Source: Perkinsus olseni (taxonomy: Eukaryota). Taken from it: 63,962 bases of DNA. A program made the translations under genes and the position numbers. Below the pieces are notes generated by a model that saw nothing but the letters and a program-made list of their open reading frames with translations, had not been told where the DNA came from and ran no database searches. Numbering within the stretch: the stretch's first letter is position 1; every line of letters starts with the position of its first letter. This document shows positions 5,976 to 48,932 of this stretch, in pieces. The stretch is taken from positions 1 to 63,962 of the forward strand of contig JABANN010000131.1 in assembly GCA_013115125.1 (NCBI GenBank), in the 5' to 3' direction.

Positions 5976-8592
5976 ATGTCGGTCGAAGCGGTCATGCTGT
6001 GCTTGGACACCTCCGAATGGTGTCGCAACGCTGATTACGTGCCTGATAGAATCCAGGCCGAGACTGAAGCGGCCAACCTCATCTGCGGGGCGAAGTCACA
6101 ACAGCATCCTGAGGTAATTCTGTAGAGCTCAAGGGTCGACCTAAGATTCCTCCTCCATTCAGACGGCTGTTGGAGTATTGACTATGAGCGGCAGCAGTGA
6201 CGGCTCCGGCGTGGATGTAGGCCCCGTCATCGCATCATCAACATCGCCTCGTCACACCGGTCGTTGTCAGCTTCGACAAACTCCCACGACGAATCTCGGC
6301 GAAATGCTAACAGCGTTGTCGAACCTCTCGCCCGAAGTCAAGGACTTCGGCCCGAACGGTCCTAGGTCTGCAGACTTGGTAGTATCTTGGGTTCAACTTC
6401 AGCCATCGGTTAGGGGAATCTTTTGAAGGGTTGGCGGTCTTGTCGATGGTTACTCACTCGAAAGATTCTTTGGAATCTTGACCGAATCTCAGGTCCGGGG
6501 GATACAGACAGCGCAGTTGGTGTTGAAGCACAGACAAAATAAAAATCAAAAGCAACGGATCGTGTGCTTTGTGGGCAGTCCCGTGGGTGCTACTAAAAAA
6601 CAGATGGAGACACTTGGAAAAAATCTCAAGAAGAACAACGTGGCCATCGGTAGTAGTGGTGGGGTATTGGTGCAGTGGTACGCGCTATGCCTGGCATTCC
6701 GGAGGTCGCGGGTTCGAGCCCATCTTGTTCGGCCATCAGATATCGTCAGTTTTGGTGAGGTCGATGCGAACAAGCCCCTTTTGCAAGACCTCTTAGACCA
6801 CGCTCAATCCAGCGGCAACAGCTGCATGGTAAGCAACGCTCGAGTCCACGCCGAATAACAACCAAGCGTCTCATGGGACTCGTCTAACGAATGAATCTCC
6901 CGGAGTACACTGAGGCAACACCCTGGAAGTCGGAGATGACGGTATCTGGTAATCTAGTAAAATCGGATACCGATCCACCATTGGGGTCCTCGAGTCAATT
7001 AGCCTCCGGGTTTGGCGGTTGCGAAGGAGGGCGGTCCATCGTCTGCTCCGTCAACGAGATGAGCGCTCCAGTGGATGCAGACTCACCCTCCGCGTGTCGT
7101 TGGACATGGCCGTTGGGGAAGGGCTTCGCTTCAGGTGGAGGTCCCGCCTTACACTGACCAGATCATGTCCGACGTCCTCATGAGTACGCCAGTCGTCACT
7201 CCCGAAGGAGCAGCTCCTCCTGCTGCTGCTGCCGGTGAGGGAGGCTTTGAGTTCGGAGTGGACCCTAGCCAGGATCCTGAGCTGGTACGTCGTCCACGCA
7301 TGCACATAAGATTCACGTGAGGTCGATCAGGCGATGGCACTGCGCATGTCGATGGAGGAGGAGAGGGCAAGGCAGGGTCAGAGTGCCGCTGCTGGAGGCG
7401 AGGGATCGGCGGCACAGCAGGAAGGGAGTAATACATGAAGCGTTGAAGTGACGGGCTATATACGATCAACTTATAGAGGCGTTGGTCACTTTTATGTCGA
7501 CCTATTATCATAATCGTTATCGGAGAGATGGTGTGCTCTATCGTTTTCCGAAGGTGTTAGTGTCTACCTTGCGGGAATCACTACCGTTCATTGCACAACG
7601 GAAATGTCATATACTCCTTCAGGCACCGCCGCCGCCCCTGCTGCCCCTGCTGGGTCTGCTCAAGAGAGTTCGGCCAGCACTTCGGAGATGGACCCTCGGC
7701 TGCAGGCAGCACTCGCCGACGCTGCTGCTGCCGGGGAGGAGGTTGGTCTGTTCGGAGATGATGATTAGTCGTCCAGTGGCTTCTTGGCAGGTTGATGATG
7801 AACTTCGTCAAGCCTTGTTGTTGTCTCTGCAAGAGTCGGACTCGCAGCAGAACAAACAACAGCAGCAGCAGCAGCAGCAGCAGGAACAGCATAAGGAGGA
7901 AGGTAGTGTCCGAACCCGGGGAGGGAGTGCTTGATGGTTGTCCTACTAGGCGAGAAGAAACCGGAAGAGAATGCCGCCGAAGAGGTGCCTGCGAAGACCT
8001 CTGCTCCCTCGGCTCCGGCGCCTGAGGACGACATGGATGAGGAGTTGAGGAAAGCCCTGATGGAGAGCCTGGAGGATTGGGATGGCGGGTAGGGAAGGGG
8101 TTTCTAACGCAGCGAGAATGATATCTTTCTACGATCGATCATGGATTACTCTTTACCTTACTTAAGTGTCGTAAAGCCTCTGATTGGCTGACGCTATTGA
8201 GCACTGTTCCTTTGGTAGGGAGAAGACTAAAGGCGATGGGGATGCCTTGGCCGAGAAGAAGCAGAAGAAGGACAAACCAGCTGCTGCTGATTCCTCATCC
8301 TCGTCTTCATTCGCCCAGGGAGCCTCCGACGAAGCCGCGATCTTCCAGGTGCAACCTAAGATACCCTCGATGTTAGCGATGCGCCTTCGCGCTTTAGGAC
8401 CCCTCGATGGTTGCCGAGCTGCTCAGTGGACTGCCTGGCGTCGACCTTAACGATCCTAGGATCCAAGAGGCCCTCAGGGACTTGCAGCAAGGGTGAGCTT
8501 CGACCCTCCCCACTAGGGCGTGTAGCGAACTTGTATTCCTCAGGGATAAGGGGGACTCGGCGAAAAAAGACGACGACAAGGAGAAGCAGTGA
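5976..8592 (+). CDS. RPN10: 26S proteasome ubiquitin receptor Rpn10/S5a (multi-exon)
   Basis: Starts MSVEAVMLCLDTSEWCRNADY; vWA motifs GIQTAQLVLKHRQNKNQKQRIVCFVGSP and KKNNVAIDIVSFGE; UIM VDPSQDPELAMALRMSMEEE; C-terminal LPGVDLNDPRIQ. Confidence 0.95.
6661..6735 (+). pseudogene. Degenerate full-length tRNA-like sequence filling RPN10 intron 6650-6739
   Basis: A-box TGGTGCAGTGG at 6668-6678 (T8, A14, G15 and GG at canonical offsets), variable loop AGGTC, B-box GGTTCGAGCCC at 6711-6721; stems pair poorly. Confidence 0.7.
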
Positions 8593-8869
8593 CTGAGGGG
8601 AGAGTAGCCACTGTTCTATCATCGAAGGGTTGTAGTTTTCGTGGTCGCAGCAGTGACGGTTGAGTTACAGTTCTTTGAGAGTTGGGAAGAGCTGTTCATT
8701 GGCAGTTCATTGTTCGTCCCTCGATGCTCCATAGGGGAATAGCACCGACAGGTAGTACCATGGGAGAGCAGCTGGGAGCGGTCGACTATACTCATACTGA
8801 GCCAGCTTCGACCTAAGATGTTGATGCCGTAGTATGAGCACTGGAATCACTTCATTTTATCCTATTGAC

Positions 8870-10086
8870 AGTAACGCTTTGGAGAAGAGGCGTGTTTTGA
8901 TGGTGGCTCCGGCCAGCTGGAACCCCTCCAGGTCTCTTTTACGCTCGTCTTTTCTTGCTCGTACCAGCCACCGTTGAAAGCACTGCCCAACTCAACGCGA
9001 AATCGACCGAATAGCGAACAGCAAGAAAGTGGCAAATTTGTTATACCAACTTCTGCTCTGCGTCGCTCGGACATCTGTGCCGGCGTGGTGGCGACTTCTA
9101 CTGGATTTTCTCAGGTCCTCGAGGAGGCCTGCCTTTCCCGAGTACAAGCACCGTGGTGAAGTCCTCGCCACTTTCTGGCGCCTACGATGATGATGACGAG
9201 GAGTAGGTGGATGATTTGAGGGAAATTTGGTATGTAAAAGAACGTGCACGCGGTGCTGATCAGATACGACCCGATGCATCCGAATGACTATGATATTATA
9301 AACAGAGAGCGTAAACGTAAGGCTGAGGAAGATGACCTTGCCGAAAGGAAGGAGATCGCAAGTAACATCTTGGCGACCTTGAGATACTCCAAAGACATTC
9401 TCAGAAATTGCGGCTAAACCTGCGGTCCAGAAGGATTCGGCCGGGAGCAAATTGTTGAAGAAAATGGGTTGGACAGAAGGGCAGGTGAGGAATCTTATGT
9501 TCATGCTTGCTTTCGGCAGAAAATGTTCTCTTAGGGTCTCGGAGCTCAGAATCAGGGGATAACGGCACCGTTGATGCACAAGAAAATTGACTCGACGCAG
9601 GGAAAGATAGAAATGGGGAAGATTTCGGTGAGGAGGGCGGAGCGATGGGAAGTGGGAGACGATCGAATCAGATTTTGCCACCGAGTATTGGCCAATCGTC
9701 ACCTGAGCCTGAGAGCCGAATTTTGCTATTAAAGAATATGGTGGGTAAGGGAGAGGTAGATGAGGACCTTGAGGATGATGTCAAGGAAGAGTGTGAAACG
9801 TGAGTATCCATCAACTTGAGCTATCTTGTATCCTACCAGCATCAACCTTAGATACGGCAAGGTCGAAGAAGTGAAGGTCCTCGAGCTCCAGACTGAGGTC
9901 AGAGTATTTGTAGTGTTTGGTGACGTTGCCGCGTCAGAAAAGGCGAAAAAAATCATGCATGGCCGGTAAGCCACGCGCGCGGCGTCAAACTATGATTCTC
10001 GTTCCATCAGAACCTTCGACCAGAAGCGAATCGACGCTACCTCGTACGATGAAGGGAAGTACAGCAGAGGCATCTACGACGCTTGA
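8870..10086 (+). CDS. SPF45: Splicing factor SPF45/RBM17 (G-patch + UHM); start uncertain
   Basis: YDPMHPNDY motif, G-patch GSKLLKKMGWTEGQ, UHM KNMVGKGEVDEDLEDDVKEECERYGKV; stop TGA at 10084-10086. Confidence 0.85.
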
Positions 10087-11029: not shown

Positions 11030-12973
11030 ATGATATAACTTCGAGGCGAATGATACGCATAGAAGTGCTAAGTACAGGGTCAGGACGCCAAGCCTGGGTT
11101 AGGTTTCCTCTTCTCCGAGCTCCGAAAAGATACCGGAGTCTTCATCTTTGTTATCGTCATCGTCATCGGCATCCTCGGAATCGTGCTGAGGAGGAAACGA
11201 CAATTACACAGATTATGATAAGACCAATCACAAACATATGTCTAATCGTCAGCGACTCAGCGACGAATCATGTTCTCTCGCTGACACTCCAGCGTAGAGG
11301 TTTTCACGGGCGAGTAGAGGCCTCAAGAAAGAAAAACTTTTTGATGAAAAAAGCGAATTTTGATAATCTCATCGATAGAACGCTCAGTGTTCTTATAAAA
11401 CGGAAGGCAACTCACCAAATCGAAGTCCCACGCTCCGCTGACGGCGCCACTGAAGCCAGTGCGGACCTTAGGAGCTCGCGGAGACCGGTATCTAAAATCA
11501 CACGAAGTGCAACCTTCGACCTAAGATACTTCTAACTCACCCTGGAGGTTTCGTGGGCTCCCTTTGCTCAATTGTCGGTAACTGTTTCAGGAGGTCGACA
11601 AGAGCCTCCTTGTCGGCCTGGCGGAAAAATGCATCGTGTCGGGAGAGAAGCTGATCGACGGAAGGCCTGAACAGAAGGCAATGACGATGTAGGAGAGAAC
11701 GGCGAGATGCCCACCGCTTGCTAGGGTCCTTCTGAAGACAGTCAGCCACCATTTTCACGAACGAGGAATCCCACGGGGTTGACTTAGTTCGCTCTAAGGT
11801 CGGCGGGGGATTCTCTAAGATATTCTTCATGACCTGAATCGAGAAAATCTTCGCAGTGCGGCAGATGCTTCGCCTGCGTACCTTCAATGGGTGAAGATTC
11901 TGATAGGGTGCGCTGCCGTTGGCCAACTCTAACGCCGTCACTCCGAAGGACCAAATATCCGCCTTATAGTCGTACCTGTCTTCGCGTCACCCCAACGGAG
12001 AACTGTGGCAAGGCGACTACCCATTTTTGCTCTGCTCAAGAACCTCAGGGGCCATCCAGCAGGGCGTTCCGACGAAGGTCTGTCGAGACCTGGAGTCTCT
12101 CATCGACGCAGAGACACCGAAGTCAGACAGATACCTGGTTAAGAGAATCTAAGAGGGAATTTGGGGGAAATGTGGTATTACACTCTGCCGTCTAAACTGA
12201 GGAGGATATTGCCCGCCTTAAGGTCGCGGTGAATTTGCTGGTTGGAATGAAAATGACGAAGGGCTATAGCCGTTTCCCGAAGAATGTACGCTATGATCCC
12301 GATGTTCTGAATGATGATAGCAACAGCAGACTACCGTCACCGCGCCACGAAATTACTGTAACTATTACGTTGATGCTGTGACCAGTGCGCTTCTTGAACT
12401 CTCTGATGACGTTCTGGCACGAGCCGCCGTTGATGAGGGGCATGACCAACCACATTTTGGCGTCCGGAGAGGAAAACGCAGCGTGGTAGGTGATGACCTG
12501 GACGCGATGGAAATGACGATTTTCGAGCGGCCGCGGGTATTATCACATTCGGATGAGTGCACATCCGCATGACTTGAAGTTCCTTGCGGATGTCGTCGAA
12601 AGTGGTGCCATCAAGGCACTCGAGATCGATCACTTTAATCGCCGCTGGTTCGCCGGAATGAACGCCCGATACGACAGTAGCCTTGTACCTGGCAAAATCT
12701 TGCTCGGCAGATGCGTATCTTAGGTCGAAGCTGGCACTCCACGGAATGGCTCATATAAGATACATAATTCCAAAAAAGTTCCATACCATTCCAACGCCAA
12801 GAAACGGTCGCTAGCTCGACTCTTCCGTCCCTACGGAAACCCTTCCCGACCTACACAGTAGCGAAAGCACCGTAGCCGATGGAGCACTCGAGTTGATAGC
12901 CTTCAGTAGTGGTGGGCCACTCACTAGGAGGCTCATGCACGCCACCTCCCGATGGCGATGATGTCCCTGTCAT
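11030..12973 (-). CDS. STE20-family Ser/Thr kinase (OSR1/SPAK-like); 3' end approximate
   Basis: [60 protein letters not shown] across many short-intron exons. Confidence 0.88.
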
Positions 12974-13139
12974 GCGAGATACTGACTAAAGCAATCTGGA
13001 GAAGCCGAGAGATGAAAATTGACATTCGTGCAACGAGAACTTCGCTCCGCTAGAAAGAATCTCGCTCGCCCGGCTGATCGTTTGCGCTCTAATCCGCTAT
13101 TGCAAGCCTTTGTCTCTCAGCCGCAGCGAGGATTGAACC

Positions 13140-15029: not shown

Positions 15030-17144
15030 TCATGGTGGTGAGGACGCGCTCTTGGTGGCACCACCGAAGTACTTTAAGTTTCGATCTCGAACGCTGATGC
15101 AAAAACAGGAAAATTCACAAGTGTGATTAACTGTCGAAGGACTTACTGTTCTCTCGCTGATTGGGACACTGACGGCACTGGAGAGGTTGTTGCCGATCCC
15201 TGCTTACTCTCAGTTGATTCCAGTCGGGCGGTAGCTCCTAAGGGACGACCGATACTGACTGGTTGGAGAAAGGGTTTTGTCATACGCTTAGTTTTCTGCC
15301 ACAATCGGGCCATCAAACTGGTCTTCCTCGGCGACAGCTCACCGCCTTCAGAACGGGTTTGATGACTCGCTTGGGTCTCCCCAAAGGTAGTGCCCTTCTT
15401 AATCAGACAAGGCGAATCATCCTGCAAGGACGATTGCGGTAAAAACGGAAAAAATTTTTCCCCTGTTACTGTAGAGAAGGCGTCCTCCGGGTTTGTGGTG
15501 TGCGGGAAGTTAGAGTAAAATTCCAACTCGTCAAAATTCCACACAGGCCGTAAATTCAAATTCCGGAGGTACCTGCCGTAACAGCACTCAAGAAGGGGGA
15601 AGAGCCAGCAAGACACCTACACTTGGCATTGGACAACGAGCCGCTTCTTCTGCTTGGCAATCGGCGATGCACTGGGCGAAGGAGGACAGTCCGACGATTG
15701 GCTACTGCCAACCTCTGCGTTGGCTGCTTTTAAAACCTACAGGGAAATGTCGATCGCAATCTGTACTAAGGAAATTCTGTCCGAGCGAAAAAATGATTTT
15801 ACGATAATTTTCCCTCATCAACCGATTTTATGAATCATCTCGCTGTGCGACTTACTTTAACAGCTTCCTCGTAAACATCTGGCATTAGTCGTTCCAGCGC
15901 TTTGTGGTCATAAGGTGCAATGGCCATGGTGCGCCGCTCGTACCTGTCACTCTAGGAAGATACAGAAAAAAAGATACTTCCATGACCGACCTCCTCGGGC
16001 ATCCTTCTAGTATGTCCAACTCTCTCAACTTAGAAGGCGAGACTTTGTAAATTTCCCTGAAGAAAGCCATAGTCGATAATCGCAAAAAGCGCACGCCCTG
16101 ATGATCGATATTACCCTTCCACAAGGAGGCCGGCTCCGGGTATGTCCAACAGGTAGGGGAAGAAGTAGTTGGCGTCGTATATCATAGGATAGGGGATAGC
16201 AGTTTGTGCAGCGGTCACGAAGACAATGTCATCACTCCCTCCTGAAAAAAAATGTCATGAGCAGGGATCGAACCTGCGTGGATGCTCACCCCGCGGTAAC
16301 ATGTACTTCTGATTCCTGCACCCCCGCTTGAGAGTTCCTAAACAGGCAATTCTCAAACTGCTCCATACCACACTTTCTCCTACCATATACAAATACTAAC
16401 TGCGGGGTGGGCTCGTACTCGCAGTCACTGAGGCAGGTGCCTTCCAAATGGCTTTCCGTTGGCGATATCAACGACCATGGAGATCGGACCCTGAACCCGA
16501 TTCATAAATGCGCGTATGGGACGCCAGTCGGACCCAGGCCCTCCTCCGCGAGCGCTTTCGGCTGATACTAAAGAACACGAGCTCATGTTGCGACGCATGT
16601 TAGGGGAAGAGGCCATGTACCGGAAACTGAGAAAAAAAGATTCTCATTGATGTGAGTGGTGATCTTTCTGACACCTCTAGCTGTGCTTACCTAGGGTCAG
16701 ACGCAGCAGTGTGCAGAGGTGCCCCCAGCCCTGAAGGGGAGCGTCCAGCACAGGGCGTGGATGATGCATTCCTGGGACGAGGGGGGCTGCCGGGCCCTTC
16801 AGTGAGGAGACTCCAGTAAGGAGCCCGCCTGAGATGGGTGATTCGAACGCTCGACGACAGAAGGCTGTCATCTCCTCCCTACCGAGGGGCGCCGCCGCCG
16901 TTGGTGCTGTTGTTGTCACCGCCGCCGCCGCCGCTGCAGTAGCTACTGAGTGAATTGGTCGAAGGCCAATTGTGTCGAGTAAGGGACGGGGATGAGGAGG
17001 AAGGGGCGCCAACCGGAAGCCCGTTGTTGAACATGATAGAAGTACACGAAGCGACTGAGGATAAGAAGCGAAAGCGTGATCATCCCTGCATGGATCGACA
17101 CGAGAATCTTTTGTTTCGTATCTTCCGTCCTCGACCTCGAGCAT
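15030..17144 (-). CDS. Gamma-glutamylcyclotransferase (GGACT/AIG2-like) domain protein; termini approximate
   Basis: Spliced exons give LVFVYGTLKRGCRNQKYM...PYLLDIPGAGLLVEGEIYKV...LRELDILEG, the GGACT signature. Confidence 0.75.
16242..16289 (-). other. 48-nt spliceosomal intron made of a tRNA 3' end plus oligo-T
   Basis: gtgagcatccac-GCAGG-TTCGATC-CCTGC-TCATGAC-A-T8-cag; removing it restores the GGACT frame (LPRG/GSDDIV). Confidence 0.85.
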
Positions 17145-34313: not shown

Positions 34314-35477
34314 AGGCTTATCGATCGATAAAAGCTTTCCTTATACATCCTGCTGTACTTAATCAGTTACATCGCAGTACTTATCCTGCGATGGTATAAT
34401 AATCGCCACGTCTCTCGCCACAAAGGGAGACGTCGCTGCCTGCTGTCACGTCAATTCCGCATAACGCCACCGTCACACAAAAGGCTGAGTATGAGTAAAT
34501 CCACCCGACGCACGTACGGTTCCTCAATAACAGCAGCCTTCGTTCTCTCTTGTTGTATGCATCACGGTGTAGGTCATACGATGCTGCCGCTGCTGCCACC
34601 TGAGGACCATGCCTCCCGGCAACCATCTCGTCCAGCCGGAACAGCGATGACGGTGGGTGATCGCACCGCTGCATCAATCCGCTTCTGGTCGTATCAGCTG
34701 TCGACTGTCTTCATGTCCTCGACAGGGATGAACCTCTCTGCTGCCCATCGTCGCTTTCGTTTGTGTGATCGCTGAGGGTTCGCTCAGGTTTCGGTTGAGG
34801 AGCTTGGTAGCATCACTCTGGAGGTGCATCGAAGGCTCCCCGCAGGAAGGCTCGAGTCGGCCTCGACTTTGCAACAGCTGCTTCATGACGTGGTTGAGTT
34901 GATAGTGCCTTCTGAGTAACATTGCATGCAAACCATGATGCTTGCGGATGTCCTTCCGTTGACGGTCTCCTAGAGAACAGAAATTGTCGTGTGACTATCG
35001 CCCGGCGCTTCGAGACCGATCCGGAGTAGAGCTTAGCCGGCACCGAGGGTTCCCAGCCCGAGCGACTGCGGTGCTGCGGCTGTTCCAATGGTTCCTCGAG
35101 TCTCTCACGAACAGTTGACAGCCCCCGCTTGCTTCGAGTTTGCGAGGACCGTCCTGAGCTCAATCCCAAATGATAGGGTTGTCTGTTGTCACGAGAAGGG
35201 CATCGTACAACAAAAAGGCAGTAGGCAGGAGTCGAACTCGGGACCTTTGCAGGCTCAACGTTAAGGGTCTCCGTAGCTTGCCACTCCAGTTGGTAATTGT
35301 AGCCTGTAACAATACTAACTGTATGGGAGAGTGCGTCATTCCGTCTCCGGATCCGTTCAGCGTTGCCTTTCCCCTCGTTGGAGGATGCTCTTGCCACTCA
35401 TGCATTTTCTATTATCCGTCTTATGTTGTTGTTGGCCAGTAGTGATGGGACGGGACAAAACTGTTTCCTGGTATCAG

Positions 35478-36322
35478 ATGTCATCATCCTCAGTAAGCCA
35501 TGCCATAAGCACGCCCCACACGCCGCCGCCTCACGTACGTTTACTTAACGACGCGGAGTTCGCCCAGGTAGAGGGGGGGCTGTCCCAAAAGATGGAGCTC
35601 GACACTGGTGAAGAGTGGATCCTGCCAGAAGGGAGTGGAATGGCCTGCTCTGTTTTTTCCTCTCGTTGTGGCAGCCTCCGGGCCAGCTGAACAGCGCAAC
35701 ACCGAGCTCATCGTTGATAGCGCATCGGCGTTAAGTCTGACTAAGCCGGCGGTGGCGTCGAACTTCAAGCTGATCCACTCGCCCTTGCTCTCTTGGTCCT
35801 CTCAGTGTCTCCTTAACGTGGATTACGTCATGTGGCTGGCCTCTGAGGGTTACTTCGAGGACGAAGCCTTTCTTAACTATTTGAAGTACTTGGAGTATCT
35901 TCGGGAGGGTAAGGAGACAACGACAGGTAGACTTGATCGTCGTTGGTCTGGAAAAGTTTTTATCTCTAATTTGGAAAAATATATTCGATTTTTTTCGAAT
36001 TCTAACATTGATTTTTTTTCACGTTCGGAGATTTTTTTTCTCTAGGCCGGTTTTGATAGAATTGGTTTTATTGGTTCGTTCTTGTTCAGCACCGTATTTC
36101 CACCTTCTGGTCTACCCAAGCAGCATGGACATGATACGGATACTCCGCTGTCCATCGGTCCGCCAGCAGCTACTGAAAGAGCCTGCTGCGGCCCGAGCCG
36201 TCCTGCAGGAGCAGCTCTGGTGCTCTTGGGGCCTTCGGAATGAGGAGGAGGAGTTGAAAGAGGGCGACGAACAAGTTGACGAGGAGATGCTGAAAAGTGG
36301 AATCGTTGACGGCGAAAAATAG
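35478..36322 (+). CDS. MED31: Mediator subunit 31 (Soh1)
   Basis: CLLNVDYVMWLASEGYFEDEAFLNYLKYLEYLRE + PYFHLLVYP match the Med31 core. Confidence 0.85.
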
Positions 36323-36400
36323 TTTCTCATTTTGTCGGCCGCTTTGTGTTGTGCAGTGGGGCTTGTCGAATTTACTGTGAAGGTAGTTGTATTGCTGTGA

Positions 36401-37228
36401 ATGGCTCGACGCCCACTCGAGGGAGAGGGCAAGGCCCTGGTCAGGAACGCTCTGGATCAGGTGAGTCTATTACGAACCCCTCTCCTTGCTCCTTTCGCGA
36501 CGGTTTCGCAGCAACGTGTGACGCGAAATGCCCTCAACAGCTCAGCAGACAGATCGCTAGTCCGCTTAGGCCAACTCTCACAACGTCTACCTCGAGAAGC
36601 AAGCCATGTGGGCGGTGAAGCGGAAGGCCGAGGAAGAGGAGGAGGAGAAGCGACACTCGGGAAGATCAAAACGAGAGACCAGCCGATCCTCGTCGCGGCA
36701 GCACGGTAAGCGTGACGAAGACCGAGCAGAATTTCGTCGCTTCTGGTCGCCGTTTTGAAGCTCCGCTGAAGAGCTTTTTGTTTCAGGGGAGAGCAGCCGA
36801 AAACGTCACCGGAGGCATGAGACGGAGGCTGTGAAAGAACACCGATCAAATGAAGAGAATTTTTGGGAAGCGGAGCGAGAAAGGCATGCTCGGGAAAAGG
36901 TAACAGCATGCATCGCCGTAGCTCCACAGCAGGTGCAACCGGCGGAAGATTTTGACTGTTTCGCTGCTCACTTTCTGTCGTGGTTTCAGGAGCGGCATGC
37001 AGACCGGATGCTCCGACGCGAAAGGCAGATGCGAGTACTTCGAGAAGTGGTAGCGATGTGAGCTCCACGCGTACGATCGAGAGGTTGGCAATTGGCCGTC
37101 GTGTCAGGCCTAGCTCGATAAGTCAGACAGATTTTCTATGGAGCGACGACGAGGATGCGTCGCCTGTTACTTCCCACCGTGAAAAGAAGAAAAAGAAAAG
37201 AAAGAAATCTAAGCATCACAAGACTTAG
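36401..37228 (+). CDS. Hypothetical charged protein with Lys-rich C-terminus
   Basis: Spliced ORF blocks; ends REKKKKKRKKSKHHKT*. Confidence 0.5.
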
Positions 37229-37861
37229 CTGACTCCGCGATTGTTTTTGGTTGAGTCTGGGGTTGGATTCTTTCCGTTGTGGTACGAGAACTGCCAGGGC
37301 AGGGAAAACGGGTACACTCAGGGTAACTCCTGGGCAACAGAGCGAAGCTGTTGCACAGGCGACACAATATGCGGTAAATATAAATTATCTTCGCTTGGGG
37401 AGGAGTTGTCGATGATGAGGTGGAAGCAACCCGCGTGCCTGACTTGAACTCAGAACTTGTTAGGGTGTGAAAAAAAGATGTCCTCCTCTCCTGTAGAAAC
37501 TGCAATGTGGCTAAAACCATTAATGGTTAAGATTCTTAAGCTCGTCTACTACGTGCATGCGTGCACGTAAATTCTACCCAAATGATGACGACTAGTGACG
37601 GGATTGTCAATCCAAAAGTAACGAATATAAATATACGTTAAATAGAGGAACCGTCATTCGGACCGCAAAGGGCCATTAAACAAGGGAACAGTCTGCTTAG
37701 TATCCTTCTCGAGTAGCCTCCATAGTAGAGGGAAGCGCCGAGACTACAAAAATGTGCAACTCATCCCTCCTAGGCCTTCATACTGTTCAACTGTGATCAT
37801 AACGTGCCAAGAAAGACACCGTATCAAGGTAGATGGCACGACAAGAAACGACGAGTAAAAA

Positions 37862-38997
37862 TTAAGACGGCTTTCTGTGACTGAGTATATCTTTTTTGTA
37901 ATCTTGAATAATCTTCATCCTATCTTCTGGTGGAAGGTCGGGCCTCTGTTCTTGGACGGTCCGCAGCAGATTCCGAGTCCTCTTGCTCGGTCTAATTCTC
38001 TGTTTGACTCGGGTCAGACCTTCGTGCCCATCTTCGTGACAGAAAAGACACTTGGCTCCCCGCAAGCATCTTCTTTTTGCATGAAACAAACACGGTGCGC
38101 ACTCTTGCTCCTCCTCCTCCCTCCCGTGGAGTAGGGAACCGAGGCTGGCTCCATGGGGAATGTATTGCTCAATCTGCTCGGGCGTCATTTTAGACACCCC
38201 TCCGTCAGGGTCTGCCGTAGGGACGTAGCCTCTCTCGCGCAGGACTCTCAGGACGCCTTCTCGAAGCCGCGGAACTTGGACCCTCGGCTGAGCTCTCCCA
38301 GGCTGAGCTCGCTGCGGCTCCAACCGAGGCCGACTTGACTCTGCTACTGAGGATGATGATGGAGGGGCCCTCTCGACTCGCGGTGCCTCAATTTCCGGGC
38401 GCGCGGTCATAGCGACCGTGGAAGGGACCTCCTGGCCAGACGTAGCGTAATATCGTAAGCGCTCCTGCTCTTCCCCATATATCGAAAGCTGCTGCGGTAA
38501 ACCCTCCCTGAGGAGAAACGTTAACCCCGAGGCGTGTGAGTCCAGCCCCGGTGTCACCCTACCGCGGTTGTTCCGGCGGGTGCGGTTCTATTTGCCGCTG
38601 ACCTTCGCTCTCTCCTAGCGCCTAAATACTCGTGATGATCAGCGATGCTGGTGGGCATGAAGACCCACCTGCCTGGCAGCCGCTGCTGCTGATATTTCCC
38701 TCGCTCGTCTGTGCCAAGGCCGTCTACCGCCGGGAGATGATTCCGCAGGGAGCGCGGTTTGGGTGGGCTCTATCGCAGATTCGGAGCGCATGTGCCGACG
38801 AGAAGGGAGAGATGAACTCGCCGTCGGCCGTCGATGTGAATCTGAACGCGAAAGAAGACGGTCTTTCCTGCAAGCGTAGCCCTTGACTCACCATCTCGGG
38901 CAGCTCCGCTCGAGGGGGGCGCCGACGCTGAACGGTCGGCGCCAGATCCAGTTGCTCTACGGGTTGGCGACTGTGATGAGGATGAACTGGATGACAT
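37862..38997 (-). CDS. CCCH zinc-finger protein
   Basis: SLGSLLH...CAPCLFHAKRRCLRGAKCLFCH in ORF 37862-38557; upstream Ser-rich exon inferred. Confidence 0.7.
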
Positions 38998-39737
38998 GAG
39001 GATCAAAGTCTATGCTGAGTAACCGCTCCGGAGACGGTCTACCCGTGCAGGGTTGGGAAAGACACGCAGCGTGCTGGACAAAACAGATGCCAGCATGATG
39101 GCAGCAGCTCGCCGTCGTTCGAGGACGGTGGCGTCACCTCCGGTGGACCGGCGCGTGACACGGCCTGCCAGCCGCAACCGACCGTGACGCTGACGCCCGC
39201 GTCACCGCAGCCCGGCCTACGACGACCGAGGGCCCGGGGTGTTCAGTTTGGTTCACAGCCCGCAGCTCCTGGCGACTCAGCGAGACGCTCATGAATGGTT
39301 GGCTGTTTGATTTGGCTGAATAATTTCGCTGTGGGGTTCGGTAGGACCGAGGTTTTCCGTCTTCCTGTTCGTGTAAGGAGAGATCGTGAATTGCCCTTCT
39401 GCATCGGGTCCGCTTCTGCTACCGTCTTCCCTCAGGAGTACATTCAACCAGAAAGGTAAAATCAGAGTTGCGCGATGACTTTGAACGATTGCCAATGTTC
39501 TGAGGCGAGCGCCAAATCCTCGGCGGCGCGCAGCGGCAGACCAAAATCAACATATGCGAAGGCAACAAAAAGGTTTGACTTCTCGTATAGGGTATATATG
39601 TTGGTTCACTCGGTGATGTTGTGAGACCTACTGTTCAACAACACGACACCCGGGTTCTGCCATCTGTAACTGCGCCCTCCCCAATAGCATCAATACCGAT
39701 TTAGCTTAGCTTCAGCGCAGCTCCTCGTCGAAGCACG

Positions 39738-40445
39738 ATGGGAATATCCCTTGGTATGAACACTACAGCGGCGGACAGCTATGACCGTTGTTGCGTCTCT
39801 CACTGTTATCCTCTACTATGGAGTCGTGCTTGCTCACGACCAAACGAACAAGTATCGAGGCTTCTTATCTGTGCCGAAAGTGACACCTTTCTCGTCCTCT
39901 ATGAATTTCACGATGATAGTTTCTCTCCTATGGTGCGTGTGAGTATCAGTTTGGAGTCCAAACCTTTCGCCGGCTTGGTCGAATTCGGAATCGATATGCT
40001 GTTGACTCAACAACGAGCCATGGCGCTTAATGTTGTCGAAAATAGCGAAGACCCTCAGGTGGGAAAGTACCGTCCAAAGAAATGTCCTCGGCCGAGGTAG
40101 ATCTCCGCGGGCCAATACGAGCGGTTGAACATGACAGTGAAGCGTTTGCGGGGCAACCAGACCTCACCGACTTGCGACTATCGTTATTTGCGATACAGCG
40201 AGCCCAAACATAACCGCTGCGTTGCCTCGAACGATCATGAAGTACCAATGGTACCAAGGCAGCTGGTGTTCGAAACTCTCAAAGTTGATCAAAGTAGGGA
40301 TTACGACGTACACGGAAAATGGTCTCTCGTTTGCCTGAACTTCTCTCCAATATTGATGCCCGTCGTATTCTCGTTCCCCACGGCTTTCTCCGGGCTATTG
40401 ACTCTTCCACCGTATGGGAACTGTGCCCATGGGGTTGTTCAGTGA
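39738..40445 (+). CDS. Hypothetical protein (spliced)
   Basis: Consecutive + strand ORFs with plausible short introns. Confidence 0.3.
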
Positions 40446-41160
40446 AACTATCCCGAGATTCACTATCGACTCTAGGGCTTATTTTTACACGTTGAGGGGC
40501 CACGAGATCAATCGGGATCGGTAAATTGAAGACCCTTTATGTCTCCCTTCCTGTGGGCTCGAGTCTGTAGTCAAACGCCGGTTCCGGCTTGGTCGGACTC
40601 TCACCGATGGGGCTTTACGTGTAGATTAATATACAGCGCTGGTTGTCAGATGGTTATCAAAAGACTTTTATTCGAGCTGAGACATTTTCTTGACAGGATC
40701 CACCCGAGGTCGAAGGTCTGTGCGTCCCATCATCTCTTATCGCGAGGAACTCGATAAATGGTAGTTGTTAATGAAACGTCCATAGCAAAGGATGCAGCGG
40801 CACAAGTCTCACGTCCCGATGTGCTCGACGAACCCTGAAAAGGAGAATCACGACAACGACGGTAACGATAACAATGAGAGTAGTAACGATGATAACAATT
40901 ACAACAGAAAAGAATCAAAATAACAACGGCAACGATAATAGAAACGGAAATAACAGCAACAACAACAACAGCAACGCAATGCTCATCCAAGTCACCTCTT
41001 GCTGCAGGTCCTCCTCCTTCTGAAGGTACCACAGCCGCACCAGTTTCGTCCATTTCCATACCAGCCGCCGCCTGACTCTGAGATATTCCTGTGATACCCT
41101 CCTCCTCCATCTCGTATCTGGGCTCATCATATCCGGCATGGGTCAAGCTTGAACGTTGCC

Positions 41161-43533
41161 TTACATGTTCTTAGTCCCCTTGACGATATCGAAGAACCTC
41201 ACCTTGTTGTCATCACAACCTGAGGATGAACGCAATCGCCGGAACTCGATGGCGCCGAAAAAAGGAGGAAAACGATCGACTCCCTCAATCAGTCTTTGCG
41301 TGTGTGTCTCAAGTCCAACGACGAGAACCGGGTTAGTCAACAGACTACCACCGCCGATGTATCTTGTTTCAAGAGGGACGAGTTTTGGCAAGGTTATTGA
41401 GCACAGCAAGTAACGCACAGGCATGTATTTGTACTGATGGTCTCGAAATGGTACACGGTGATAGTGACAAGAAAGGCAATTTTTACGGTGATACAGATTG
41501 TACTCGAGAATCGCAAGAGACGACTTTCATTGACTGTCCTTTTCACCGGACACCAACACACCTGTGATGATGGTCTTGTCAACAGGAGATGCCGCAACGG
41601 CCCTCACTGGACTCGAGTGCCCACCGACCGCAGGCACGAGGACGTCACCTGATACCACACCATCCGCAACAACATCGAGATTCGAGGATGTACCAGTCAA
41701 GGAGTCAAGAAGACACATATCAGACTCTCCGATCCTTGACGAGGTCGTGGCAATGTACCTAATCAGAAGAACCTTCGCGCGCGGAATTTTTGGGCGAGTG
41801 ACGGTACTGTTCGTTTCCAGCAAACGTAGCCGTCATAAAGGAGCAATCAGTCGATGTAGTTGCGCCCGAGTAGACCATCAGCTCCTTGCCGGTCCTCATA
41901 TCCCACAGCCGCGCTCGATGGTCACCGCCGCTCGTGAGGAGGTAACGGCAATTTCGGCTCCACTGGACGGTGAAAACTGGATGTCCCGAGTGCGGTTTCA
42001 CGGTGGAGCCTCCGACACCCGGCGCACCATGCAGCTTGTTGATGAGACGATTGGAAACACCGTCCCAGAGGTGAACGTGACCTGCGTTGAGGAGTTGCAA
42101 GATTTGCAAGATTGCAAGAATCACCCACCATCACTGCCTGCCGATGCGAATACGCTACCATCACTCGCACATGCGATATCCAGCACCTAAAAAGATACTC
42201 ATCGTGAACGCACAGCGAAGATTTTCGACCTACACTGCCGTTGTGGTGCTGCCCTCCTCCTCCGCCGCCGCCAGCGCCGGCCCCTCCACCGTAGTAAGCG
42301 GAGAAGCACTGCAACGTCCTGGTGTCGTAGAGGCGTATCACTCTATGAAGGGTCCCAACATACACGAAGTCCCCACAGGGATGAACTTGGACCTTGTTAA
42401 TCGGGTAGACCTGCCAGGGACGGGTGAGCCGCAACGGTGACACCCCTGAGCTGCTCACGTCCACGACGTTGTGTTGGGCCCGCTTGTTGTGATGGGGTTT
42501 GGTGAGATCATACACCTTCAAAGTCCTACAAAGATATGCTCATGAACGACAGATAGATCGATCATGCCTACTTATCGTAGCTTCCACTGAACAGTATGGG
42601 CTGTCTCGGGTGAAATGATACGCTGGTAACAGTGCCAACGTGATCGTAGTAGGTCCTGACCACCGGTCTGAGGCCGTCGTCTCGCTCTCCCGCTCTCAAC
42701 AGGGTAGCATCGCCCCCAGCCACTGCATGCATGCGCATCTTGGCAGTCTCGAGCACCTTGATGGAGGTATCGGTCGATCCGGAAGCACAGAGTCGACCGT
42801 CCGGGCTGAACGCCACGCAACGGACTTCCTTCTTGTGTTGGGTAGTAAACCTCAGCCGTACCTACTTCGACAAGTGAGCGTCGACAAGGCACCCACCATC
42901 TCCTACCACAGGCGTCGGTCTAGTGACCCGCTTAGCCTCCTCTGTAATCATATCCTCCTCGTAAGTCTCCCCTCTCGGCGCATCATCATCCTCATCGTCA
43001 AGGTCCATCTCGTCAACATCCCTGCCTTTGAAGGGTTGATCTCTTCCCTCCGCCTCCAACTGCGCCTGTAGCCTATCATTGTAGCTAACTCTCAGATCCA
43101 GATGGTCTTCGTGGGCGGAGAGCGGCGGATACGGACGACACTTTATCGGCTTCCACTTGTCCGCTTCCGACCCCTTCTCCTGTCTTCGGATACTGTCAGC
43201 ATACACGTCATAAAGGAAGTCTTTCTCGATCGCCCCGCCGACTGTGAGATCTGTACTCGCATTAGCCCCTCCAGGGACGTTGCCGTTCTCGTTCTCCTCA
43301 TTGCTCGGCTCCACTGGTAGACTCAGGTTCAACCGCGTCGCCACGGACTTCGCTTCGTCCATCAGGCCATCGCCGTACAACTGTGATACCACATATCGGT
43401 AAAATCCCAACTTCTGTGCCTTGAAATTGAGCCCCACCTGGGGCGCTCTCTTGGCGCCCGCTGCACCCGTGGCCGTGGGACCACCGCCACCGGCCGCTGC
43501 CTGATGATGGAAGGTGGAAGAGGCAGAGGCCAT
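41161..43533 (-). CDS. CSTF1: Cleavage stimulation factor 50 kDa subunit (WD40); a further 3' exon near 41.0-41.1 kb is possible
   Basis: YRYVVSQLYGDG N-terminus, AFSPDGRLCASGSTDTSIKVL, RPVVRTYYDHVGTVTSVSFHP, YLLTSGGDHRARLWD, GCDDNKVRFF. Confidence 0.9.
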
Positions 43534-43773
43534 CGCTTCAACAACACGACCACAACAGAAGCCTCAACTGACCTGAGGAATTTACTGACACCTCTAGCTG
43601 TGGATTATCCCAGGCAACCCGACTTGGCGAACATATAGTAATTCTGATGAAACTTGCTGATTGCGGCCGAGAGGAATGATGCGACTACAGTTTAAACAAT
43701 CTTACAAAAAACGCACTATCTGCTCATCACATCACGACGACGACCAAATCGATCGCCAGGGCGCGCGCTACTC

Positions 43774-46393
43774 TCAATCGTTCAAATGTACCGCCTTGGC
43801 CTCGATATCCCTGGCTTCAGCGGTGATTTTGGGGTCCATGACAGGCATCGGACCGCGAGGGACATTGGGTCCCTTCATGTGGTAGAAAAGCATGTACGCG
43901 CTCGTGTTGGGGCGCTCCAGGCCACTCAAGAGACGGTCGACCTCCTCCTTGCTGATGTCCGTGATCTCAGAATCATTATACTCGTGCCACCTACCCCGGG
44001 TTGCCTCCGACCTCCGTCCAACTGTGATGTAATGGCCGTTCTGGATGGTCTCCCCTTTGTGGAGGATGGAGCCATAGCACTCGTACTGGGCCCCACCAAA
44101 GGACAAGTCGTCCATGTCCGGGTAAACCACCGTCTTCTCCTTTTTGAAATCACAACTTTCTATGTCGAATGAAAAACGATAAAGCACCAGTATGAGATGG
44201 GTCGGCGGTGGGCTGCTCAGTTCCACCCATCGCTTGGCGTCCCTCTTGCACCCGCAGTTCTCGCAGCTGTACTGATTGTTGCCTGTCATCAGCTCCGGCT
44301 CCGACCATGTCCTCAGAAGACCAATGACATCTAGGTTACCCTGGCCCAGGACCTCAGCTTCCCTCGGCACACTCAGGCCGATATCGGTGCAGGTCTCGGT
44401 GCGCTTCGAGATGGTATGGCAAGTTTCGCACTTTGTCTTGTGTACTAGCTCCAACGCGAAGATATCTCCCACAAGTCTCTGCTTGCATCTGAGACGAAAA
44501 AAGATTCTCCTCGTACCACACCACGACCAACTTACCCGCCCAACTTGTCCAGGATCCATCGAGCGCTTTCGGTGGTGTCCTGCTCCTCCCCAGTGCGAAA
44601 ACTCGGCGGCAGAATTTTGATGAAGTCGGAGATTTCAACGTAAGCGTACGGGGTCAGCAACATCCGCGCGAAGAGGAGACGAAGGCCGTCCAGGATCTTC
44701 TTGCCCTCCTCGAAATCATCTCCCTTCAGGTCGTCAGTTTCCTGCAGTTGGAAGCCGTAGATGGAAGAGCAGAAGGCATCGGTCAGGAACAGCATCTGCA
44801 GGAAGACCCCAAGGTAGCACCTGAGGCGGCAGGACGGTGGTGGTCATTGGTAGCGATGAAAGAGACCAAGAATACAAAAGCGAAATCACTTGTAGTGTAC
44901 TATCTTCAACATTAGATACCAATACAGACTGACTGCTTCTTCGCCCACGATGCCTGTAATTTTCCGATTCCTCCATGGCTGGTTCGCAATGCTACAAATA
45001 TCCACGACGCAGCGACCTCACCCATGACGACCTAGCTTCGACCTCGGATACTCATACTCCCACCTTCTCTAAATCATGACAAATATCCCAATATCGCTAA
45101 CCGCCCCCTGATTTCCGTTCAAAAAGATACCAACCTAACTCCCCCACCGCCCTTATTACGTGTTGTTGTAGTTTTGTATGCCTACCGTATGCTTCCTGAA
45201 TTTTACGGTTTCTCCATTAGATCCGGTCACATAAACCACGCGAGGCTTCTCTTGAGCGGCTGGCTGCTGAGGGGCCACCTGCTGCTGCTGCTGTGGCGCC
45301 GCAAAGTCCCCCACGACGGGTAGAAGGTAATTCGTCGTCGGCATCTGACCAGCCCCAGTCGGCCAAGGCCCGGCAGTGGTAGTAGAAGCTGGGGGCATCG
45401 GCATCCCCTCAGGAGGGGTAGTGCTGATCCGTGCAGCCGTCGGTGGTAGCCCTAGCATGGCAGCAGTGGTGACCTGGGCGGAGCCGTAGGCAGGTGTCAT
45501 GTCCCCAACGTAAGGTCGGATGAGGTCGATGAGCTCTTCGATCAGGGACAGAGCAAACGGTGGAAGGCCCTCGACTCTACCGGACTCCCACAGCGTTCGA
45601 AGCCTCTCATAATACGGCAGCAAACTCGCGTCGAAGATCTGTGCGACGGCGCCATGCAGTAGTATAGAGCCCTGGCCACCATGTCCTCCATTCCGGAAGG
45701 GACCAGCGGGCTTGAGGATCATCAGGAGCTGTCTTAGACCGTCCACAGCTGTGGCCGGGCCGTGCAACTTCGCCGAGAGCGTTCTCAGCATGGACTCCGT
45801 CATGACCCGCCAGTCCACGCCTCCGCTGGAAGCCGACTTGTCCGAATAACACTGCCGAATGACACAGCGGAAATAGGTCGTCACCAAGGAGTATCTAAGG
45901 TTGAAGCATGTCCATAACAAAATAGTAGAGACGAAGCTCACATCGGGTAAGGACTGCTCCAACGGTCCATGTTGACCATCCCCATAGCATACTTGGGTGG
46001 AGGCATCGCCGGTATCGATATCAACTTGACCCAGAGGGCCATCATGTCCTCCCCTCCCCCATCCGACGCCAGCAGCAAGGCCTGCACCGTCACAGCCAGC
46101 GTCTCCGGCCGCAAAAGGAGAAGACAGGCCTGCAACTGAGGGCTCGCCTTAGCCGCCATTTTGAAGTAGTCCGCCAGGAGATAGCAGTCAAAGGTAAGGG
46201 TATTTGGGAACTCCTTCTTGACCCTCATCATCAAACTAAAGGCCATCGGGGCTACTCGATTGGCAGGGTCGGGAGCGTCCATCCAGGAGAGGAGGAGGCT
46301 GAGCATCTCCTCGGGAGCCTGGGGCATGCTCGACGGGACCTCCGTCCACAGCCGTAGGAGGCCCAAGGGGGTGCGGTGGTAGGTTGTATCCAT
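43774..46393 (-). CDS. Ubiquitin-specific protease (USP/C19)
   Basis: Cys box GIQNYNNT/CYLGVFLQML, EQDTTES, YSCENCGCKRDAK, His box ILHKGETIQNGHY, SAYMLFY. Confidence 0.9.
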
Positions 46394-46490
46394 GGTAAAA
46401 ATACAAGCTTGGAGAGAATGATGGAATGGAATCTTAACTCGAAGCTTGCACAAAACAGAGATAATGATACGTACAAGTGAAGTGAGGAAG

Positions 46491-48856
46491 TTACAAGGCC
46501 GTTCCCCTCTCGAGATTAGCCTTGATCTCCTTAGTGTACCTGCAGAAAAAAAATGACCGGTGCCGGGATCGAACCTGCGCCCCAAGCCATACTTGCCGAA
46601 CTCCCTTTCGATCTTCCTATTGAAGTGCTGGTTACGAGCATTGATGTAATCAACATCCTCATCCGGATTGACCAGACGGCGTCTGAGACAAGGACCGCTC
46701 TACCATTGCCGCCAGTCCGTCGATGGCATAAGAAGAACTTTCAAATTAAGGAAGACAATAACATACTCATGAATAACTAATAACGGCAATCTGAGTGAGA
46801 GACCTTTCAGGATGCAGCGCTTTTACGATCATAATTTCTTCCCTCAACTTTCTTGGGATCAATTTTTTGAACCCTCACGAGTTTTCTTCGTTGATTCTTC
46901 TTCCGAACTTCCATGATTTATGAGTTTCTACTAGCCTACTCCCTACTTCATAATACTAGGAGAGCTTCTATCTAGTAATGATAAAACTACCTCCACCAAA
47001 ACTTTGAAACTGTCGCGAAATTCAAGAGTCCCAAAAAATCTGCAGCTCATACTCCCCCCCCCCACACCTGGAGAAGGCCCTCCGCTTGTCATCAGCTTTC
47101 TTCATGGCCTGGGCCAACCGCTCCTTGCCCTCCTCGGAAGGCTTCGCACTGACCAGATCCTCGTCATCGTAGAAGGCTTGCCCGAGAGCTTCCTTCTGCT
47201 TTTCATACCTGGCAAGGAGGGCTGGCGAAGGCTTCTATAGGGGGAGGGCCGTACTTCACTTCATTAAACTGCACATCCACAAGTTTCTTATCGTGCGCTC
47301 GATAGAGAGAATCCTGAGGTCGAGCATGCAAGATACAAAACAGGTCAACCTGAAGACCGCCTACTTCATTGAAGACCTCCCATCCAAAGGTATGATTATT
47401 GCCCTTTCGAGCCTTCTTCTCAGCCCTAGCCTCAGCCATCGATGCTTGCTCGTTGAGATACCATCGCGTGTGGTCCCAATCCTCCCCCTTCTTATACTCT
47501 GACCAACCACCACCTCCCAATTCCCAAGCACCTTCTCCAGTACTACTTCTCCGCTTCCCTCCTGTCCCCTCCGGAGCATCCTGATCTTCCCGAGGGCCCC
47601 CCTGCTGACCCTCCTTATCTTCCTTCAGCACCTCCTCTTGGTTAGCAACCCGCGCCTACCGGAAAATACAGTCACCACGCATCACACTGCCTCAAGGCTG
47701 GCCCTCTTCGCTAGTCGTCAGCGCAATAGTTTCACGATGGAAAGTCGCAAGCAATGCGGAAGATTCGATCCCAACTCACCTGGTTCATCTTCAATCTCAA
47801 CTCGAACATCCTCGCCTCCCTCTTATTCTTGAACCCAGCAGACGGCTGAATAATAACGTCCTGCTCAACCCACTCCAAGGGAAGGCGTCTCACCTTGACA
47901 GGAGTAGAAGATACTTCTTCGACCTCCGACTCGCTGCTGGCTCCAGCCTCGTCCTCATCGTCCTCCAAATCAATCGGTATGTCTTCCGCTGACTCCTCGC
48001 TTTCCGCAGCATTATCAAGCAGCTTTTTGCCTGCGATCAGCATCAGTAACCGACCCCCCTGTTGGACCTAGCCCGATGCCCCCGTACTACCCAAGGAAGC
48101 AGCAGTGGCGACCCCTTCAGCCCGGAGCTGCTTTCGGCTCTTGAATCGGCCTTGCTCGACTGCAGCTTTCCTCTCCTCTAGAGCCTCGTCCACTTCCTTT
48201 TTGCCAACCATACCACATTTCACGATAATTATATCAACGCGAGGGCGATCTTGGTCATCAGTCGGGACCTTCTCTATGGCTCTGATAACCTCCATGCCTC
48301 TAGTGACCCGTCCGAAGGGGACATGGCGGAAATCCAGCGCCCGAGACCTAGCGTACGTAACCATGTACTGCGAAGTGTTGTTGTGGCGCTTCTCTCCTTG
48401 ATAAGTGGTCGTCAAGATACCCGCCCCACTATGCTTGTTGATGGAACTACCATAAACGATATCGCCGGAGCGAACGCCCGAACCCTAGACCTACTTCTCA
48501 TCTCGGAAGGGTTTGCCGTAGACCGACAGACCACTGCTACCGTCATTAGCAACGATATCGCCTCCCTGCAGTCCCTCGCCCTTCACCGATTTGAAAATCT
48601 TCGAATTGCGGTAGGTCAGCTCAGGGCCGTATTCTCCCGTACCTACAGGATTTTCTTTACGCGATGACTATTATCCATAAGATATCCTTGCTTCGCTCCG
48701 CTAAGATTTGCCCCATTTTCCCGTCCTACATAGTCCTCTGAAGTTCTCAGCCGTCTCCGGACAGGTATCAGCGAAGAGTTCGAACTCCACCCGACCACCC
48801 GCAGCCGCGCCGATCTTCACCTCCAGAAACACGCGAGGGTTACGTCGATGCCTCAT
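46491..48856 (-). CDS. Cyclophilin-SYF2 fusion protein
   Basis: N-terminal cyclophilin (NPRVFLEV...FELFADTCPETAENFRGLC, HVPFGRV) and C-terminal SYF2 ([50 protein letters not shown]). Confidence 0.88.
46540..46592 (-). other. 53-nt spliceosomal intron containing a tRNA 3' end plus oligo-T
   Basis: gtatggcttggggc-GCAGG-TTCGATC-CCGGC-ACCGGTC-A-T8-ctgcag; removing it restores SYF2 FGK/YTKEIK. Confidence 0.85.
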
Positions 48857-48886
48857 GACGTTGTACAAGGGCGGAGAGACAAAACC

Positions 48887-48932
48887 CTGATGTCCGAACA
48901 TGGAATCGAACCCGGGACCTCCAAGTCCGCAC
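48887..48932 (-). other. Putative 46-nt 5'UTR intron with tRNA 3'-half (B-box)
   Basis: gtgcggacttGGAGGTCCCGGGTTCGATTCCATGTTCGGACATCAG, aligning to the 3' part of RPN10 intron 6650-6739. Confidence 0.55.

Follow-up and report, generated by a model that had tools for sequence, protein, structure and literature searches.

Short GT..AG segments with tRNA-like 3′ parts recur in and beside unrelated genes of Perkinsus olseni

The window analysed here is a stretch of 63,962 nucleotides (nt) from the clam parasite Perkinsus olseni, and all results come from this one 64-kb window and from sequences that were compared with it from elsewhere. Among its genes are RPN10, GGACT, SYF2 and cyclophilin (CYP), and in or beside these genes lie four short segments with GT..AG ends whose 3′ parts resemble the end of a tRNA gene. 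An earlier note on this DNA had described these segments as spliceosomal introns composed mostly of tRNA-like sequence, and all four are indeed present. The RPN10 segment (6650..6739, plus strand) is 90 nt long, in frame and free of stop codons, and represents the longest tRNA-like copy. The segment of the GGACT gene (16242..16289, minus strand) has 48 nt and that of SYF2 (46540..46592, minus strand) has 53 nt. The fourth segment, of 46 nt (48887..48932, minus strand), is located upstream of the cyclophilin start codon.

A single order of parts was observed in all four segments: a 17-nt T-arm, 7 nt, an A, a run of T residues, and CAG or CTGCAG at the acceptor. In RPN10 the spacer differs, 10 nt instead of 7 separating the T-arm from the A. 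In the GGACT copy, a T-arm with a perfect 5-bp stem (16277-16261) is followed by the 7 nt and A (16260-16253), a run of eight T (T8, 16252-16245) and CAG (16244-16242). The SYF2 copy is built in the same way, with a T-arm in which four of five stem positions pair (46578-46562), 7 nt and A (46561-46554), T8 (46553-46546) and CTGCAG (46545-46540). The CYP segment carries a T-arm-like stretch with a broken stem (48915-48899), 7 nt and A (48898-48891), one T (48890) and CAG (48889-48887). In RPN10, a tRNA-like body (6661..6721, plus strand) comprises the acceptor 5′ strand, a D-arm, a decayed anticodon region, a variable loop and the T-arm, whose B-box (6711-6721, plus strand) matches the pattern GGTTCGANNCC. 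It is followed by a tail (6722..6739, plus strand) that recurs in the CYP copy and whose last six nt, at the acceptor, are CATCAG. The T-run thus has a length of eight in GGACT and SYF2 and of one in RPN10 and CYP. The 5′ part is preserved to different degrees: almost the whole tRNA is represented in RPN10, and the last third alone in the other three.

All four matches of the B-box pattern GGTTCGANNCC in the whole window fall within the segments, one per segment, and every one of them is on the host gene's coding strand. Only 0.66 matches were expected, and four were reached in 1 of 100 shuffles. The sense orientation to the host and the direct contact of the tRNA 3′ end with the acceptor, both claimed before, were borne out for all four segments.

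The segments form two pairs. When the four were searched against the window with blastn, GGACT and SYF2 aligned over 35 nt at 86% identity (E 3.5e-6), and RPN10 and CYP over 39 nt at 82% (E 8e-5), significant matches which establish the two proposed families as real. Both alignments extend to the acceptor AG and stop there, with varying 5′ extents. The donor GT of each copy is found in sequence that is not common to the copies, while the acceptor side is common in 4/4. In family 1 (GGACT and SYF2) the T-stem is complete or almost complete and the 7-mers are not alike, so these copies may stem from different tRNA genes or may have diverged. In family 2 (RPN10 and CYP), both copies have an identical broken T-stem strand (CCAT) and an identical tail, which suggests one ancestor that was already degenerate, not two working tRNA genes. 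Judged from sequence, this points to a repeat family rather than to two independent captures.

The segments in RPN10, GGACT and SYF2 are real introns on the basis of protein colinearity, and removal restores the reading frame in each of the three genes, in line with what had been stated for three of the four segments. The 90 nt of RPN10 are in frame without a stop, and the read-through translation was therefore used as a search query. In alignments to solved RPN10 chains, query residues 24-74 correspond to chain residues 90-140 and query residues 105-126 to chain residues 141-164; the 30 residues encoded by the intron fall exactly between residues 140 and 141. These 30 residues are missing in five of five aligned homologues, namely those of P. 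olseni, P. chesapeaki, P. marinus and Vitrella and a transcript-derived protein. Protein-to-genome mapping gave the RPN10 junction as well (83/83). In the case of GGACT, the proposed junction is bridged by two protein models of P. olseni, the unspliced frame contains a stop, and the exon downstream of the intron aligns with residues 30-65 of human GGACT. No match to the 21-residue upstream exon was found in a PDB search. The spliced reading of SYF2 equals the C-terminus of P. chesapeaki SYF2, save for one residue upstream of the junction. RNA sequences gave 44 joints in the region 33000-52900 (19.9 kb, four runs), of which 15 were listed; the SYF2 and CYP joints are not among these 15, which has no bearing on their splicing either way. 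As an aside, the RPN10 intron would add 30 residues within the VWA domain if retained, and gene finders could read through it. The finding would also bear on gene prediction in Perkinsus, because this 90-nt intron is in frame and carries no stop.

The CYP segment is an unconfirmed candidate intron. It lies outside the coding sequence, in a gap of ~220 nt between the RPC1 stop and the cyclophilin ATG (the last RPC1 block maps to ~49076). For this segment only, it is a serious possibility, somewhat short of even, that no cis-intron is present and that the sequence instead precedes an acceptor for trans-splicing of the spliced leader, or is plain intergenic DNA with a tRNA relic. The position in the gap fits such a view. 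Additionally, it is documented that Perkinsus adds a spliced leader to its mRNAs by trans-splicing (PMC3101222), and the AG at 48887 might thus accept the leader instead of ending a cis-intron. When the two sides of ~48936 are compared, RNA contigs were deeper towards cyclophilin than towards RPC1 in runs X7, X8 and X9, the three contig runs of four, the raw-read run X24 having given three reads only. A further weak tRNA relic (35217-35287) outside any known intron points the same way. On the other hand, the GT..AG ends, the typical length of 46 nt and a layout abutting the acceptor as in the confirmed RPN10 intron are those of an intron. We also considered a resemblance of the family-2 tail to the Perkinsus spliced leader, for which primers are given in PMC3101222. 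About 10 nt are alike, in the RPN10 copy only, and we judged this to be coincidence.

The likeness to tRNA was assessed by aligning the four segments and 43 control introns to 12 distinct real tRNAs, which came from metagenome loci and were not selected by the search pattern. Best local alignment scores of 22 for RPN10 and 17 for CYP were obtained, and the controls reached at most 15, with a mean of 9.5. Positions 12-72 of the RPN10 intron align with positions 3-63 of a tRNA-Ile (score 22) in a colinear fashion from the acceptor to the T-loop, spanning the acceptor strand, D-arm, variable loop and T-arm. We therefore regard the tRNA origin of the segments, which the earlier note had put forward, as well borne out and, as far as sequence comparison can tell, as very probable. 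As for the head of a short interspersed nuclear element (SINE), both the D-arm and the T-arm are aligned to tRNA in RPN10, and the other three segments retain the B-box part alone.

The family-1 pattern (T-arm, 7 nt, A, T-run) was found at 18 loci of a metagenome scan, and in 14 of the 18 ARAGORN sets a tRNA 3′ end on the match. Of the remaining four loci, three are cut by contig ends and one, L015, is without a call. In this one metagenome scan, the loci were taken as ordinary ends of tRNA genes, none of them is Perkinsus-like and no further intron copies were observed; one scan of viral contigs for the family-2 pattern gave 0 matches. A ‘mini-tRNA’, in which the first 7 nt of the intron would be the tRNA 5′ acceptor strand, was evaluated by eye. 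The pairs amount to 6/7 in CYP, 4/7 in GGACT and 4/7 in SYF2. In CYP the same stretch is equally good as a direct repeat of the 3′ strand, and the idea was not adopted.

To place the segments among other introns of the window, we relied on protein-to-genome mapping, gene finders based on codon bias and on bridging of open reading frames having been too unspecific. Mapping of three Perkinsus proteins gave 30 introns; together with 15 of the RNA-supported introns and that of SYF2, a set of 46 introns (4,257 nt) was obtained. The median length of these supported introns is ~49 nt, and segments of 46, 48 and 53 nt are thus at or near the usual size. A sense B-box is present in 3/46 introns and an antisense B-box in 0/46. 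T-runs of at least seven occur in 6/46 introns, including ones that are not tRNA-like, and the window contains 12 such runs, four of them of at least eight. The reading of the oligo-T as a terminator of RNA polymerase III (Pol III), part of the original proposal, is weakened by this finding.

The boundaries of the segments were compared with those of 15 control introns. RPN10 shows a 7-nt direct repeat, GGCCATC, which also ends the upstream exon, and the controls reach a maximum of 5. Folding of the four segments was no more stable than that of shuffles (z-scores from -1.4 to +0.65). In 21/46 introns the downstream exon opens with GT, often GTAC, which gives AG|GT at the 3′ boundary and reflects either an extended splice-site preference or a vestige of intron origin. 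A donor GT taken from a duplicated target found no support, as among the four segments only SYF2 has a downstream exon beginning with GT, compared to 21/46 introns generally.

The explanation we favour, to which we assign an even chance, is that the segments are degenerate, 5′-shortened copies of tRNA genes or tRNA-SINE-like elements which were inserted in sense orientation and which provide, with their T-run and CAG, the pyrimidine tract and the 3′ splice site. It is backed by the placement and strand of the B-box matches, the scores of RPN10 and CYP, the tRNA-gene architecture at the metagenome loci, the common 3′ ends, the degenerate family-2 ancestor, the status of three segments as introns, the near-usual size of three of the four, and the boundary repeat of RPN10. 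The intron body and 3′ end would be a decayed copy of a tRNA gene or tRNA-derived repeat, and each copy would retain the 3′ part of the tRNA gene, that is, the T-arm, the acceptor 3′ strand, the discriminator A and the T-run, then CAG. Because the copies are sense-oriented, the T-run and CAG that follow the tRNA end would be read by the spliceosome as a pyrimidine tract and a 3′ splice site. The copies might have arrived by insertion into coding sequence, through retroposition with 5′ truncation or through capture of tRNA-gene DNA at a break. Survival would probably have been limited to sense insertions that the spliceosome could remove at a length close to the usual 45-50 nt of introns. A plausible and large source pool would be amplified tRNA genes like those of the sister species P. 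marinus, where Kojima and Jurka 2013 (PMC3706591) counted 349 tRNA-Leu and 116 tRNA-Gly genes on the scaffolds besides further tRNA genes, hundreds of copies in all. An intron-generating element, as the earlier note had suggested, is a plausible candidate. A wider version would see in perkinsids a class of tRNA-gene-derived, intron-creating elements, pseudo-tRNAs shortened at the 5′ end that enter genes and are tolerated since the Pol III terminator T-run and the AG after it form a ready-made tract and acceptor. This version is tentative and rather doubtful. If it were true, thousands of introns of ~47 nt would derive genome-wide from tRNA-derived elements, which would be the first introner family of Pol III/tRNA instead of DNA-transposon origin.

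Several observations weigh against the explanation by inserted tRNA-gene copies. The recurrence in unrelated genes rests on four loci (2 + 2 copies) in 64 kb, and one of these, CYP, is possibly no cis-intron. With scores of 13 against the real tRNAs, neither SYF2 nor GGACT exceeds the controls, two longer members of which (109 and 238 nt) score 15 and 13. ARAGORN finds 0 tRNA genes on the segments and Rfam gives 0 matches at the gathering score, and a functional tRNA cloverleaf was recognised by these programs in none of the four. At a loose threshold, the Rfam tRNA model yields a partial match on GGACT of 10.8 bits (E 7.7; 29 bits are needed), which is 5′-truncated and ends at 16253, the base before T8. 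It finds nothing on RPN10 or SYF2 at E up to 10, and CYP gives a sub-threshold tRNA-Sec match of 12.3 bits. ARAGORN at an 80% threshold produced 48 calls dominated by noise. The presence of T7 or longer runs in introns that are not tRNA-like means that T8 need not be a Pol III terminator. The set of 46 introns is biased, since it was the finding itself that prompted the mapping of RPN10 and GGACT, and since the SYF2 intron entered the set manually. The boundary repeat of SYF2 is marginal (9/16, control maximum 8), and those of GGACT and CYP are unremarkable. The ends of the copies are unlike those of an ordinary SINE, and no poly(A) tail or tail resembling a long interspersed nuclear element (LINE) is observed. 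Finally, the introns may be new, or may be old ones that were invaded.

The last point leads to the best of the other accounts of the segments as a group, in which old introns were invaded by tRNA-derived repeats and then trimmed, under pressure towards a length of ~47 nt, to the part that provides tract and acceptor, so that no intron was created. We consider this unlikely, if by no means far-fetched. Further introns of these genes hold recurrent short modules of other kinds, and intron sequence therefore seems to turn over generally by repeat insertion. Furthermore, T-runs near acceptors are common in introns, and clear target-site duplications are absent in three of the four segments. What speaks against this account is that three segments have only 46-53 nt and are mostly tRNA-like, which would require replacement of the whole former intron, and that the 3′ end of the element coincides exactly with the acceptor in 4/4 segments.

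The earlier note had offered a second possibility, namely selected TFIIIC docking sites; more broadly, selection might keep the B-box pieces as binding sites for TFIIIC or as small Pol III units within Pol II genes. The B-box pattern is matched by all four segments, and in the RPN10 copy a stretch that we take to be A-box-like lies ~43 nt upstream of the B-box. Nothing beyond the B-box match itself was found in favour of selected docking. A docking site would need no fixed orientation relative to the host and would not have to stop precisely at the acceptor; this proposal leaves both features unexplained. The T-stem is decayed in both family-2 copies, and the segments fold like shuffles. On sequence grounds such selection seems quite improbable. 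That the tRNA likeness arose by chance or convergence in short GC-rich introns is more improbable still. A loose hairpin scan was indeed at chance (3 matches, 3.2 expected), four B-box matches do occur in 1/100 shuffles, and the covariance model scores are below threshold. Against chance stand the E-values of the two pairs in 64 kb (8e-5 and 3.5e-6), the colinearity of the RPN10 intron with tRNA over D-arm and T-arm, the scores of RPN10 and CYP above all 43 control introns, and the location of all four matches in GT..AG segments on the host strand.

Several known systems resemble the inserted tRNA-gene copies that we favour. Antisense Alu elements supply pyrimidine tracts and 3′ splice sites in Alu exonisation, and as in the Perkinsus segments, a T-run from a Pol III-type repeat is reused as the tract before an AG. 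In Alu, however, the T-run is a poly(A) tail read on the complementary strand, and an old intron gains a new exon, whereas in Perkinsus a sense tRNA end precedes the T-run and it would be the intron itself that results. Introns can also arise from filler DNA captured at repaired breaks, including an intron derived from mitochondrial DNA. Here too, unrelated cellular DNA becomes an intron because it offers splice signals. Such cases are single events with arbitrary sequence, while the Perkinsus piece recurs in the same orientation and ends at the acceptor. With tRNA-derived SINEs, the segments have in common what may be a tRNA-like head, with stretches resembling the A-box and the B-box, in the RPN10 copy, a common 3′ end and variable 5′ end as in retroposed copies, and a degenerate master for family 2. 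They differ from SINEs in lacking a LINE-like or poly(A) tail and clear target duplications. A body or 3′ tail unrelated to tRNA is also absent, the copies ending in T-arm, 7-10 nt, A, T-run and CAG.

Another comparison is with introner elements, which occur in Micromonas, Aureococcus, fungi, dinoflagellates and Amoebophrya (PMC11282704, PMC9860276, PMC7789003). In both cases related sequence forms introns in unrelated genes. As in introners, the end of the element is the end of the intron and brings one splice site, here the acceptor in 4/4, and the other splice site lies outside the common sequence. The same division is described for Micromonas in PMC11282704, except that there the introner gives the 5′ site and a duplication gives the AG, the reverse of the Perkinsus segments. 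Introners are reported as mostly DNA transposons with inverted repeats and target duplications and have hundreds to thousands of copies. The Perkinsus segments, in contrast, would have a tRNA gene or tRNA-derived repeat as source, amount to four copies in 64 kb, show no inverted repeats, and have a possible duplication at RPN10 only. A further link between tRNA genes and mobile elements is provided by Dada elements, DNA transposons of 4.7-11 kb that insert into tRNA genes (PMC3706591). Together with the P. marinus tRNA genes, they indicate Perkinsus genomes with unusually many tRNA genes and mobile elements tied to them, but no connection of Dada with the 46-90-nt introns is apparent.

The origin of new spliceosomal introns is a long-standing question. 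In a 2024 review of transposon-derived introns (PMC11282704), the well-documented bulk route of intron gain is the insertion of introners, mostly DNA transposons, and tRNA is mentioned in other senses only. In the main text of Gozashti 2022 (PMC9860276), the terms ‘tRNA’ and ‘SINE’ are absent. Within the papers that it covered, our literature search turned up no account of introns derived from tRNA or from SINEs, be it in Perkinsus or in other organisms, in agreement with the statement of the earlier note that none was known from perkinsids. The segments are a real and unusual feature, partly explained, and they may indicate an undescribed way of making or remodelling introns. If the favoured explanation is true, a piece of a tRNA gene that brings its own pyrimidine tract and acceptor would constitute a different and very simple route of intron gain, and Pol III gene amplification would be connected with it.

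Weaker traces of similar sequence were observed in the window. A possible fifth copy, a weak one, is the 54-nt GT..AG segment at 5780..5833 (plus strand), upstream of the RPN10 start codon. It has a T-arm-like hairpin, then 7 nt, an A and a pyrimidine run before the AG, and resembles the GGACT copy over 25 nt at 84% (blastn, E 0.07, weak). The loose hairpin scan of the window, with its 3 matches, is at chance when taken alone. The possible relic at 35217..35287 (minus strand), also weak, has a T5 run and lies in a stretch without a clear coding frame; it matches the CYP copy over 19 nt at 89% (blastn, E 0.06) and was called by ARAGORN at the 80% threshold only, among the 48 noisy calls. The RNA-supported intron 35909-36089 (plus strand, 181 nt) contains three T-runs of 7-8 nt. 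Within it, 36017-36045 shows a weak likeness to the family-2 tail, followed by T8 and CTCTAG, which is not significant (E 8.7).

A second and far commoner module, GTATCTTAGGTYGAAGC, has 17 matches in the window at no more than 3 mismatches, compared with 0.24 expected. Examples are located at 49913-49929 (minus), 12715-12731 (plus), 52233-52287 (minus), 6133-6149 (minus) and 8348-8364 (minus). It is often followed by the inverted repeat AAGATAC. At least 6 of the 17 matches, some in one orientation and some in the other, lie within introns supported by protein. Within the RPC1 intron 52189-52303, GTATCTTAGGTYGAAGC is part of a 38-nt unit that is repeated ~3 times, and the full units start with GT and end with AG. 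From its sequence, this module may be a hairpin-type introner or a miniature inverted-repeat transposable element, or the 3′ end of an intron joined to the 5′ start of an intron. One copy searched against Rfam gave no match. A third short module was found at 16089-16109 (minus), 33440-33460 (minus) and 43748-43768 (plus), with 3 matches at no more than 3 mismatches and 0 expected, and one of these copies is inside the GGACT-gene intron 16057-16114.

Finally, a few features of the neighbouring genes were recorded. The RPC1 exon 52587-54545 (minus strand) is 100% identical to a P. olseni protein and 94% identical to a P. chesapeaki protein. The P. chesapeaki model P0001 fuses RPC1, cyclophilin and SYF2 (window 46494-54545, minus strand) into 1,143 residues, and the P. 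olseni RPC1 model P0002 carries the name ‘pre-mRNA-splicing factor syf2’; both look like annotation errors that arose from very short intergenic gaps. Local duplications of 76-98% identity were observed at 23755-24592/28061-28819, 1325-1596/2183-2454 and 55345-55544/57860-58059, the last pair being located in two DnaJ-type genes.

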